NCBI GenBank assembly: GCA_945929875.1
Contig: CAMEOO010000002.1
Location: 65,813-129,812, forward strand
Length of the DNA: 64,000 bases
Direction of reading: 5' to 3'
DNA from: an uncultured Bacillales bacterium
Lineage (GTDB): Bacteria > Bacillota_I > Bacilli_A > RFN20 > CAG-449
Part shown: positions 46,750 to 54,204 of the stretch, in pieces
Position numbering within the stretch: position 1 is the stretch's first letter
Layout: each line of letters opens with the position of its first letter
The notes under the pieces: generated by a model
Databases searched by the model: none
The model's input: the letters and a program-made list of their open reading frames with translations, nothing else
What the model was told of the DNA's origin: nothing
Position numbers and translations under genes: made by a program

Positions 46750-49700
46750 ATGACTAGATTTAAGAAAACAATGCTTGCTACAACGCTTGTAGTAACTATG
46801 GGCTTAACTGGATGTTCTTTATCAAATAAGAGCGACAAAAATGATGAAAATGTAGGAACATCTGGTCAATTAAAGGTATTAAATGCAAATGTTGATGTCG
46901 AGCAAATTAATAGACTCGATCAAATTAAAGCGGAATACCTTATAGAAAATAAGGGGTATTTAGATACAGACAAAGTTGATGTTATCATCGAATTAGATGA
47001 ATCTTCATTAATAGATAGATATTTAGATTCTTCTACAAATTATAATTCCGTCAGCGATTATGTTAATGAAGAAGAGGGAATCATCAGTTCTAAAGCTATT
47101 TCCTCAGAGCAAAAAAAATTAATTAATAAATTATCAAAAGAGAAGTTAATCGATAATGTCGACTATCAATATCAGACTATATTAAATGGTTTTTCTTGCA
47201 CTACTACATATGGAAATATAAAAAAATTAGAGAAGTATTCTGGTATTAAAAATGTAATTTTGCAAGATACATACAATTTACCTATGTCTACTTCTAATGA
47301 TACTAATGCTCCAGTTCAAAATGTAGTTGATGTTTATGAAACTGGTATTTTTAACTCTTCAACTGTTAATTACGATGGAGAAGGAACTGCTGTTGCAATA
47401 TTAGACTCTGGATTTGATTGCAGTCATGAAGTATTCAGAAATCAACCTAATTCAGGAGTGTTAAATCAACAAAAGATTGGAGAAATACTAGATGAATCTA
47501 ACGCTAAAAAAACTACGAAAGATTTAAAAGTTAGCGATGTTTATTATAGTAAAAAAATTCCTTTTGTTTATGATTATGCCGATAAGGATTCTGATGTAAC
47601 CCCATATGATTCTGAACACGGAACTCACGTTGCAGGAATCATTGGAGGAAAAAGCGATACGATCACTGGAGTTGCTATCAACACGCAATTAGTTCTATTG
47701 AAAGTATTCCCAAATTTAGATTCAGGAGCAAAAACTAATGACATTCTCGCTGCTTTAGAGGATGCGGTTTTACTAAAAGTTGATGCAATTAATATGTCTT
47801 TAGGCTCTTCTTGCGGATTCTCAAGAGAAGAAGATGGGAATGCAATTAATACTGTTTATGATAAGATTAATGCCAGTGGTATTAATTTAATTACCGCTGC
47901 AAGTAATAGTTATAATTCTAGCTATGGATCAGAACAAGGTAACACTAATAAAGTTACCAATCCAGATTCTGCGACAGTTGGCTCACCTTCAACGTATGAA
48001 GCTGCCCTTTCTGTTAGTTCTATAAGTGGAACAAAGAGTAAATACATTATAGGAAATGATAAGCAAGTTATCTTCTTTAATGAATCTAATAACTTGGCTA
48101 GTAAACCATATGATTTCTTTGAAATGTTAGGTTTACCTCAAACTGGAGAAAAAGTATATGATTATGTCACTGTTCCAGGCGTTGGAATGAAAATAAATTA
48201 CGCTGGACTCGACATCAAAGGAAAAATTGCTCTTGTTAGAAGAGGAGATAATACTTTTGAAGAAAAAGCAAAAGTTGCTTCTTCTCAAGGAGCGGCGGGA
48301 ATAATTATTTACAATAATGTCGCCGGTGACATTTTGATGAATATGGGAAAAGATTTAGATATCCCATGTATATCTATTTCTAAAGATAATGGCACTGAAC
48401 TAGCTAAGAAATCTAGTGGTAAATTAACCATGAGTAGAGAAAATCTTGCTGGTCCATTCATGTCAGACTTCTCTTCTTGGGGTCCTACTCCAGATTTGAA
48501 ATTAAAGCCAGAAATTACCGCACATGGGGGAAATATTAAATCTAGTATTCCAGGAGGAGGATACGATGAGTTATCTGGTACCTCAATGGCTTCACCTAAC
48601 TTATGTGGAATTGTAGTTTTAATTAGAGATTATGTAAAAAATAAATATCCAGATTTATCTGCAAAACAAGTATCTGTAATGGTTAATCAATTATTGATGT
48701 CAACAGCTACTATCGCTTTAAATGAAGAGGGAGTTCCTTATTCTCCAAGAAAACAAGGAGCGGGGCTTGCTAGTTTATTTAATGCGGTAAATTCTGATGC
48801 ATATATTACTGTTGATGGAATCGATCGATCAAAGTTAGAACTTGGCGACGATCCAAAGAAAACTGGTATATATGAAATGTCATTTAACATTGTCAACACT
48901 TCAAATAATCCATTATCATATAAATTTGATTTATGTGCAATGACAGAGACTGTTTCTTCTTCAGACAAAAACTTCCTTGCAGAAAAAGATCAAATCTTAA
49001 AAGGTAGTGTAGAGATCAATAGCGTTACTAACGCAACATTAAAAGACGACATTATTACTGTTGAAGGAAATAAAACTAGCAAGGTAAAAGTCACCTACAC
49101 TTTATCAAATGAAGATAAACTAATGATGAACAAATTATTCCCTTATGGAGAATTTGTTGAAGGTTATGTAAAATTATTAAGTTTAGATAATACAGACAAG
49201 GGAGTTGATTTATCTGTTCCATTCTTAGCTTTTTATGGTGATTGGAATCAAGCTCCAATGTTTGATAAGACTTATTATGAAGTAGAATCGGAAGCTCACG
49301 ATGGAAGTATCGACGAAGAAGATAAGATTAAAGCGGACGTATATGCCACTACACCTTATGCTTCTTACTTGAATAACTATATCGTTCCAATTGGTTCTTA
49401 CCTCTACGATATCGATGAATCTTTATACGATGCTATTCCTGCTAGCGAAGAGCATGCCGCAATTTCTTCGCAATTTGGTTCAACTGAAGGAATCAGTTGC
49501 ATATATGCAGGATTACTTCGCGGAGCAAAGCAAATGACTTTCACTATCACCGATAAGGTTACTGGAGAAGTAGTCTACACTCATGTAGATTACAATGCGA
49601 ATAAATCTTACTCACTAGGTGGTTCACCTAATCCTTATTATGAAGATATCGCCTTTAAAACAGCTGATTTAGGTTTAATCAATAACCGCGAATACGAATT

Positions 49701-54204: not shown

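Follow-up and report, generated by a model that had tools for sequence, protein, structure and literature searches.

The window analyzed here, a 64,000-nucleotide stretch of DNA from an uncultured Bacillales bacterium, contains on its forward strand (46750..54204) one unbroken open reading frame (ORF) of 2484 codons with an ATG start. The encoded protein comprises, in this order, a lipoprotein signal, a probable propeptide, a subtilase (S8) domain with a protease-associated (PA) insert, an Fn3-like domain, a beta-rich region, two Big_2 segments, an array of leucine-rich repeats (LRRs), a helical bundle and a transmembrane (TM) helix. The union of protease head and LRR stalk is, judged from sequence comparison, a fixed and old combination, because the architecture is family-wide and the C-terminal module is restricted to the family. 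The function favored here, to which somewhat better than an even chance is given, is that of a lactocepin-like nutritional cell-envelope proteinase (CEP), which makes importable oligopeptides on a different stalk and anchor. A search of the literature found no description of an S8-LRR protease family or of its locus.

Domain architecture and anchoring of the protease

A preliminary description of this gene, made from the sequence of the window, had listed a lipoprotein signal with the motif LTGC, a complete subtilisin triad, a PA domain between the catalytic His and Ser, Fn3-like and Big_2 segments, and LRRs. The domain list was confirmed, with S8, PA, fn3_5, Big_2 and LRR_5 all scoring above their Pfam gathering scores, and the individual assignments are as follows. 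The sequence MTRFKKTMLATTLVVTMGLTGC, with its Cys22, fits the lipobox pattern [LVI][ASTVI][GAS]C required within the first 15-35 residues. Of 29 aligned homologues, at least 90% have Cys22, and a lipobox-like motif was present in 58 of 67 near-full-length genomic homologues; in the two closest relatives of the window protein (P0002 and P0003), Phe replaces the lipobox Cys. Cys22 and the catalytic domain are separated by a conserved stretch of ~160 residues, missing from the preliminary description, which showed 47% mean pairwise identity among homologues. It matches the pro-region of the subtilases PrtP and ScpA in position and size, and by this analogy it is probably a propeptide. An Inhibitor_I9 match was observed at about aa 116-177, below the threshold (18.9 bits against a cut-off of 21.2, E 0.0025).

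The Peptidase_S8 family (PF00082) was matched over its full-length model (1-288) with 133.8 bits against a cut-off of 21.8 (E 1e-38). The triad is complete and in the order Asp-His-Ser, with D219 in LDSGF, H290 in HGTHVAG and S612 in SGTSMASP, all canonical motifs. These three residues and Asn386 were invariant in an alignment with 28 homologues; Asn386 is the putative oxyanion-hole residue, its role being assigned by position in the motif ASN. The catalytic domain showed 73% mean pairwise identity among homologues. The PA domain (57.8 bits against a cut-off of 23.9) was found inside the S8 match, at aa 483-551 between H290 and S612, as had been proposed, and the fn3_5 domain (38.3 bits against a cut-off of 27.6) directly follows the catalytic domain, as it does in enzymes of the C5a-peptidase type. 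Pfam also supported the Fn3-like domain and the two Big_2 segments of the preliminary description. The strongly conserved region at aa 869-1230 showed 64% mean pairwise identity among homologues. No PDB chain was matched, up to E 1, in a sequence search with aa 869-1357; hence, the analogy of aa 869-1230 to the A-domain of CEPs is one of position only.

The LRR array was recognized by LRR_5 (PF13306) in eight stretches with 440.9 bits against a cut-off of 27.7 (E 4e-134). Among PDB chains it matched 4fs7 (E 7e-49) and 4gt6 (E 7.5e-35), and also PcpA and TpLRR. A BspA-type array had been proposed in the preliminary description and was upheld, but the proposed count of ~40 repeats was not: a repeat hidden Markov model built from the protein's own units gave 28 positively scoring units and a few degenerate ones, i.e., ~30. 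The repeats form three blocks (aa 1383-1665, aa 1707-2115 and ~aa 2188-2210), with non-LRR inserts within the solenoid at ~aa 1666-1706 and 2116-2187. Tandem repeats at the DNA level were absent from the array, and the repeats are therefore considered old and diverged. The region is not hypervariable, with 47-58% mean pairwise identity between species. Its conservation spans gut samples from human, goat, sheep, deer, rabbit, chicken and mouse (according to record titles), which agrees with a role in structure or in general binding.

The C-terminal part was modeled with AlphaFold2 (aa 2100-2484, predicted local distance difference test score (pLDDT) 85). The model showed LRR strands up to ~aa 2225, helices at aa 2308-2458 and a terminal helix at aa 2465-2483. 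The most hydrophobic 19-mer of the whole protein, within aa 2460-2483 and followed by KK, coincides with this terminal helix. The helical region and the terminal hydrophobic anchor of the preliminary description were thus borne out by the model, and the anchor by the hydrophobicity as well. A Foldseek search with the C-terminal model returned LRR proteins only, the helical bundle being without a significant structural neighbor; this helical stalk is also the least conserved part of the protein (37% mean pairwise identity). A hydrophobic helix, with a basic tail, was found in the last 60 residues of 59 of the 67 near-full-length genomic homologues, and most of the remaining 8 either continue past such a helix into long acidic tails or appear truncated at contig ends.

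The stated absence of an LPXTG motif proved correct for the C-terminus; the sole LPQTG (aa 462) is internal and is not conserved. No conserved motif precedes the C-terminal helix among the homologues, and some of them have long cytoplasmic tails. A sortase signal at the C-terminus was rejected on these grounds, and the helix is taken to be a true membrane anchor and not a sorting signal because no motif precedes it. The proposal that the protein is anchored at both ends holds in so far as the lipobox and the TM helix are both present and conserved, but it may apply to the zymogen only. If the propeptide is cleaved, the lipid anchor is lost with it and the mature enzyme would be held by the C-terminal helix alone, so that anchoring at both ends would, by analogy with related proteinases, probably describe the zymogen only.

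The preliminary description had also seen in this arrangement a reminder of wall-less lineages. This idea found little support, as the family also occurs in walled Clostridia, e.g., in the cultured rod Pumilibacter intestinalis. The sortases srtA/B have been reported as absent from the uncultured orders RFN20 and ML615J-28, and RF39 has been predicted to be thin-walled (PMC10868615). The absence of sortases in related uncultured orders explains the missing LPXTG better than an absent wall. The window further encodes a LysM-LysM-GH18 protein (4128-5399, reverse strand) with the architecture of the SleL/YaaH-like spore-cortex enzymes; its predicted domains hint at peptidoglycan and perhaps spores.

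Distribution of the family and organization of its loci

A search of 5.8 billion proteins identified more than 120 cluster representatives of 2425-2596 aa, which share 50-70% identity with the window protein at 95-100% query coverage and carry the same Pfam set. The names given to relatives by NCBI, where there are any, are 'leucine-rich repeat protein' or 'hypothetical protein'. Relatives were found in at least 577 genomes (one genome per GTDB species), the isolate genome NZ_CALPCH010000001 included. Among the matches listed, all 80 of 80 came from a gut or faecal source, and Pumilibacter intestinalis CLA-AA-M10 was the cultured carrier, in which a homologue of 2555 aa adjoins opp (L077). Carriers labeled Mollicutes, Anaeroplasmataceae, Acholeplasmatales and Bacilli had 27-35% G+C, and those labeled Clostridia, Christensenellaceae and Oscillospiraceae had 39-59% G+C; these lineage statements are NCBI record titles, which are unreliable for metagenome-assembled genomes (MAGs).

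The possibility that the ORF is an assembly or annotation artefact, with protease and LRR genes joined by misassembly or read-through error, was considered along with these data and can practically be dismissed. The full-length architecture recurs in the more than 120 independent clusters, which derive from many samples, and in the species-representative genomes with the isolate among them, and the DNA has no tandem repeats on which an assembly could collapse. The module following the LRRs (aa 2226-2484) matched just 71 of 1.84 billion representative proteins, either at the C-terminus of ~2500-2700-aa proteins or in shorter proteins, which are probably mostly gene fragments; an artefact would hardly confine it in this way. 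No support for an artefact was found. The sole relevant case is one locus (L061) in which the gene is split into parts of 1578 and 1022 aa, most simply by a frameshift in the MAG. Apart from this split gene, protease and LRRs were not seen as normal separate genes in any relative, a state the preliminary description had proposed to look for; its concern about a chimeric assembly is removed by the recurrence of the architecture.

Neighbor-joining analysis of the proteases yielded two deep clades, which correspond to two arrangements of the locus. Both clades mix low-G+C (27-35%) and high-G+C (39-59%) genomes, for which either transfer between classes, or an ancient locus that was often lost, or wrong MAG labels may account. 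A relative 67% identical to the window protein was observed on a contig of 48% G+C (L081), as against about 32% in the window. Some genomes harbor two deep paralogues of the protease, e.g., the loci L013 and L040 of the same MAG. On contig JAFQFT010000058.1 (L073 and L056), the order of genes is protease B, c4, OppABCDF, c7, protease A, c2, c2, c8, in the notation of ORF clusters introduced below.

The genomic context was evaluated by calling and clustering ORFs in 80 related loci, 44 of which had at least 8 kb on both sides of the protease gene. At least three Opp genes adjoined the protease in 41 of the 44 fully flanked loci, 33 of them upstream and 8 downstream. The other three retained one or two genes of the Opp cluster, the rest being missed because large ORFs called on the opposite strand of high-GC DNA displaced them. 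The identity of the transporter was confirmed by Pfam, which recognized SBP_bac_5, two BPD_transp_1 permeases (one with OppC_N) and ABC_tran with oligo_HPY. In arrangement 1, where the protease follows Opp, the order is c4, c6, c5, c3, c0, c0, c7, protease, c9, c2, c2, c8 and often c10; in arrangement 2, where it precedes Opp, giant lipoproteins are followed by the S8-LRR protease and then by c4 through c7. Here, c4 is a lipoprotein of ~380 aa with a weak, sub-threshold match to the Listeria-Bacteroides repeat, c6 is an SBP_bac_5 protein of ~880 aa, c5 and c3 are the Opp permeases, the two c0 proteins are OppD/F-type ATPases with oligo_HPY, and c7 is a membrane peptide of ~78 aa. The clusters c9 (~185 aa), c2 (~780-900 aa), c8 (giant) and c10 are all lipoproteins. 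The block c9-c2-c2-c8 follows the protease in 30 of the 44 fully flanked loci.

Two side observations concern the clusters at the start of the Opp block. The OppA-like c6 protein (L021 2570-5206, and homologues) has its best SBP_bac_5 stretch from ~aa 465 onwards and falls far below the cut-off of the NCBIfam model Opp4A; a typical OppA has roughly 550 aa. In arrangement 2, a c9-like domain is fused to the N-terminus of c4, giving proteins of 566-584 aa as against ~380 aa (L073 17447-19150), a gene fusion that links c9 with c4.

The window is an exception, as are the two closest relatives of its protease (66-71% identity): the genes upstream of the protease are unrelated ones, whereas c9-c2-c2-c8 is retained downstream. 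The gaps after the protease and between the four lipoprotein genes measure 12, 159, 28 and 80 nt, and none of the gaps of this five-gene unit contains a terminator-like site. A Shine-Dalgarno-like GAAAGG lies 13 nt 5' of the protease ATG. The promoter scan was uninformative, with 54 sites observed against 63.7 expected by chance (G+C of the window ~30-34%, about 32%). Where most relatives have the Opp operon, the window harbors hydrogenase genes (39555-46623, forward strand), namely a HydS-like sensory [FeFe]-hydrogenase with a PAS domain, a PP2C/SpoIIE-type phosphatase, and then HydC/HydB/HydA, a trimeric hydrogenase of the electron-bifurcating type. A predicted hairpin at 46635..46654 sets this hydrogenase operon apart from the protease gene. 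Farther upstream, the reverse strand encodes at 2578-3111 a ROOL RNA of full length (Rfam RF03087; score 185.8 bits, gathering score 99.1), with a tRNA-Thr(CGT) ~0.9 kb from it at 4012-4087 of the same strand.

Pfam and NCBIfam recognized none of the 184-, 649- and 722-aa lipoproteins of the window and, in the giant c8 protein, Big_3 only. The c8 proteins of the closest relatives are 2272-2284 aa long, with a range of 1100-2300 aa across loci; for the c2 proteins the overall range is 650-900 aa. The two c2 proteins of the window share 23% identity over ~640 aa (E 1e-10). An AlphaFold2 model of the first (pLDDT 80, predicted TM-score 0.66) gave weak Foldseek matches to the half-barrels of LolA, LppX, LprG and BFA1 (E 1e-5 to 1e-3, TM-score 0.3-0.45), and with low confidence the model suggests that c2 consists of tandem LolA-like domains. 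Profile comparison of the c9 family with the c2 family matched the signal peptide only. Ser/Thr-rich linkers were observed after the lipobox in both c2 proteins and the giant c8 protein of the window.

Table 1. Coordinates of the protease gene, its predicted domains and the adjoining features in the window (aa, residues of the protein).
Feature	Position	Strand	Basis or remark
Terminator-like hairpin with T-run	46635..46654	+	3' of hydA; sequence
Complete coding sequence, S8-PA-Fn3-Big_2-LRR-helical-TM protein, 2484 aa and stop codon	46750..54204	+	ORF, Pfam, homologues
Lipoprotein signal peptide: n-region RFKK, hydrophobic core, lipobox L-T-G-C (Cys22)	46750..46815	+	Sequence pattern, conservation of Cys22
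Probable propeptide, I9-like, aa 41-200	46870..47349	+	Weak Inhibitor_I9 match, position; SGO_0316 model aligned from aa 92
Subtilase catalytic domain, aa 210-672, with D219, H290, N386, S612	47377..48765	+	Pfam, PDB matches, alignment
PA domain, aa 483-551, between catalytic His and Ser	48196..48402	+	Pfam
Fn3-like domain (PF06280), aa 705-826	48862..49227	+	Pfam; PDB alignments to aa 868
Strongly conserved beta-rich region, aa 869-1230, first Big_2-like segment (~aa 1150-1220) near its C-terminal end	49354..50439	+	Alignment
Second Big_2-like segment, aa 1231-1360	50440..50829	+	Pfam, best stretch ~aa 1307-1334
BspA-type LRR solenoid, ~30 units of 20-24 aa, aa 1383-2210	50896..53379	+	Pfam, PDB, repeat model
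Conserved post-LRR domain of mixed secondary structure, aa 2226-2305	53425..53664	+	Alignment, AlphaFold2
Helical bundle or stalk, aa 2308-2458	53671..54123	+	AlphaFold2, pLDDT about 90; weak DUF3829 match
C-terminal TM helix (~aa 2459-2478) and short basic tail KKFVF	54124..54201	+	Hydrophobicity, AlphaFold2, homologues
184-aa lipoprotein, cluster c9, 12 nt after protease stop	54217..54771	+	In many relatives too
649-aa lipoprotein, cluster c2, first copy	54931..56880	+	Predicted tandem LolA/LprG-like half-barrels
722-aa lipoprotein, cluster c2, second copy	56909..59077	+	Distant paralogue of the 649-aa lipoprotein
Giant lipoprotein, cluster c8, Big_3 domains, at least 1614 aa in the window, runs off its end	59158..64000	+	Pfam, relatives

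Proposed function and competing explanations

As a nutritional proteinase, the protein would be exported by its lipoprotein signal peptide, as the sequence pattern suggests, and, as in PrtP and ScpA, the ~180 residues after the lipidated Cys would by analogy act as a propeptide and be lost when the enzyme becomes active. Only the C-terminal TM helix, with its short basic tail in the cytoplasm, would then hold the mature enzyme in the membrane. Outward from the membrane would follow the helical bundle, the LRR solenoid of ~30 repeats, the Ig-/Fn3-like domains and, at the tip, the S8 head with its PA domain, a geometry in which the distance between membrane and active site would amount to tens of nanometres. 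Together with the helical stalk, the solenoid would replace the B, H and W domains of PrtP, and the TM helix would replace its LPXTG; the solenoid is probably a rigid spacer, a protein-binding surface, or both. Extracellular proteins would be cut to oligopeptides and these imported by the Opp-type ABC transporter, supplying amino acids to gut Firmicutes. In the clade of the window, where Opp is not adjacent, the protease would head a five-gene unit with the four lipoproteins.

The near-constant linkage to Opp points to nutritional proteolysis, and the conserved protein length and LRR sequence support a nutritional proteinase. The cultured carrier points in the same direction by its scarcity of carbohydrate-active enzymes (CAZymes): Pumilibacter has a minimal CAZyme repertoire and is seemingly unable to use many carbohydrates. 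Several observations weigh against this reading. The closest solved homologues are the host-directed streptococcal C5a peptidase and SpyCEP and not a nutritional enzyme, and BspA-type LRR proteins are mostly described as adhesins. No Opp block was detected in the window by tblastn, nor beside the protease in its two closest relatives, so that the Opp argument is, for the window gene, borrowed from distant members of the family. The model has no obvious need for four co-encoded lipoproteins, and no PrtM/PrsA-like maturase was found, peptidyl-prolyl isomerase being absent from the Pfam/NCBIfam matches of the neighboring genes, to which this negative is limited. The propeptide assignment leans on an Inhibitor_I9 match below threshold.

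The solved relatives that count against a nutritional enzyme, and the reputation of BspA-type repeats as adhesins, favor a host-directed factor of colonization or immune evasion, whose LRRs would bind a surface protein of host or prey cells and whose S8 head would cut a specific target. For this there is precedent in ScpA, which cleaves C5a, and SpyCEP, which cleaves chemokines. Such a role is unlikely, yet it keeps an appreciable share of the probability: the LRR part matches BspA-type surface proteins including PcpA and TpLRR (the HupY/LrrG model stays below its cut-off), all listed carriers are gut-associated, and the gene is not beside Opp in the window's own clade, for which this reading is least unlikely. 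In the remaining family, however, the linkage to Opp is nearly universal. The LRR sequence and the length of the whole protein are conserved in bacteria from very different host animals, whereas an immune target would favor diversification, and no specific target can be named. The preliminary description had suggested that the protease is targeted to a host or prey protein bound by the LRRs; given the Opp linkage and LRRs that are not hypervariable, this was not supported over the nutritional alternative.

The lipoprotein block lends itself to another explanation, which is considered rather doubtful: that the protease belongs to a surface assembly with c9, the two c2 proteins and c8, the main job of which is not nitrogen nutrition. 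It might serve cell attachment by very small or epibiotic bacteria, or the scavenging of lipids or lipoproteins, with the protease processing its partners or remodeling the surface and the LRRs docking the partners. The recurrence of the block after the protease, its retention in the window's clade without an adjacent Opp, and the tight spacing of the genes with no terminator-like site between them are in agreement with this, as are the resemblance of the c2 model to the lipid-carrier folds of LolA/LppX/LprG and the passage of Pumilibacter cells through 0.45 um filters. Against it, the fold matches of c2 are weak, and the loci of arrangement 2 have the protease and Opp but no c2; moreover, a surface assembly would be compatible with a nutritional role. 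Opp transporters import pheromone peptides too, and the adjacency of Opp could accordingly suggest a maturation protease for secreted signaling peptides that are re-imported by Opp, as in RNPP-type quorum sensing. This appears very improbable. The ORF clusters contained no recurring gene for a small-peptide precursor or a regulator, although they were not screened for RNPP-type regulators specifically, and a protease of 2500 aa with PA, Fn3-like and LRR parts is far larger than known pheromone-processing enzymes.

A bolder extension of the nutritional proteinase is put forward as a speculation with a small chance of being right. The locus as a whole would be a 'protein-utilisation locus', the products of which form a single machine at the cell surface for the capture, cleavage and import of protein, with the protease as its catalytic arm; transfer of the entire locus from one bacterial class to another would belong to this picture. 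It would be common to the Mollicutes-like Bacilli and the Christensenellales-like Clostridia of animal guts, and would consist of one or two giant S8-LRR proteases on membrane stalks, an enlarged OppA (~880 aa) with OppBCDF, the Listeria-Bacteroides-repeat lipoprotein, the LolA-like lipoproteins and the giant Ig-like lipoprotein. Bacteroidota have Sus-like utilisomes, and the locus, if the speculation is true, would be their protein-directed counterpart in Gram-positive bacteria.

The carriers are common and almost uncultured gut lineages (Mollicutes/Bacilli MAGs and Christensenellales-like Clostridia including Pumilibacteraceae). A conserved, very large surface protease wired to a peptide importer would offer a handle on their nitrogen nutrition and, if the nutritional reading is true, make them a possible source of the serine-protease activity of the gut lumen. 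As Pumilibacter intestinalis CLA-AA-M10 is in culture, the predictions are directly testable.

Comparison with known cell-envelope proteinases and LRR proteins

The affinity to C5a peptidase and lactocepin proposed in the preliminary description holds, the best PDB matches being C5a peptidase, SpyCEP and cell-envelope proteinase (E 1e-63 to 1e-56, aa 205-868). With the streptococcal ScpA/ScpB and SpyCEP/ScpC, the window protein shares the catalytic, PA and first Fn3-like domains. Unlike it, these enzymes are anchored to the wall by LPXTG, are without LRRs and cut specific host immune peptides; beyond aa 868, the window protein has no match to C5a peptidase or SpyCEP. The best curated model, NF040553 (SGO_0316/SGO_0317, Streptococcus gordonii type), which describes serine peptidases anchored by LPXTG, aligned at aa 92-847 (E 3.8e-80). 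Its score of 270.1 bits against a cut-off of 1400 and its lack of an LPXTG place the window protein outside that family.

The likeness to lactocepin (PrtP) of Lactococcus lactis extends to the overall plan. Both have a signal, a pro-region of ~150-180 aa (a probable one in the window protein), an S8 domain with a PA-like insert and Fn3-like/A-domain beta modules, followed by a long spacer and a helical domain beside the anchor, with the protease head at the distal tip. PrtP has been described with its N-terminal head on top and its H domain near the anchor, standing ~40 nm above the wall and feeding Opp (PMC7783315). The helices modeled at aa 2308-2458 occupy the place of the H domain, which is a structural analogy and not a claim of homology. 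Unlike PrtP, the window protein has a BspA-type LRR solenoid of ~30 repeats as its spacer, not a B domain, and lacks a proline-rich W spacer; it has a TM helix with a cytoplasmic tail as its anchor, not LPXTG, its signal is a lipoprotein one, and no PrtM-like gene adjoins its own. Another difference from PrtP is the physical clustering of the protease gene with opp in most relatives. The family shows a sortase-free design of the cell-envelope proteinase, consisting of TM helix, helical stalk and LRR spacer.

The repeats are of the same type as in BspA-type LRR proteins such as PcpA of S. pneumoniae, TpLRR of T. pallidum, HupY/LrrG of S. agalactiae, and the structural-genomics proteins 4fs7 and 4gt6 of gut bacteria; the HupY/LrrG adhesin model NF047961 gave 149.9 bits against a cut-off of 1250. 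The BspA-type proteins known so far stand alone, resemble adhesins and have 6-15 repeats; in the window protein, the ~30 repeats are flanked by a protease and a membrane stalk. A partnership of proteolysis and peptide import is also reported for Staphylococcus aureus, in which extracellular proteases followed by peptide uptake through Opp3 reportedly allow growth on host proteins; the likeness considered here is one of two-step logic (PMC6495380). The CEP-type S8 head, the BspA-type LRRs and the partnership of protease and Opp are hence each already known singly. New are the fixed fusion of protease head and LRRs, the stalk of TM helix, helical bundle and LRRs, a gene cluster shared with opp and with four lipoprotein families that lack annotation, and how widely the family is spread among uncultured gut lineages.

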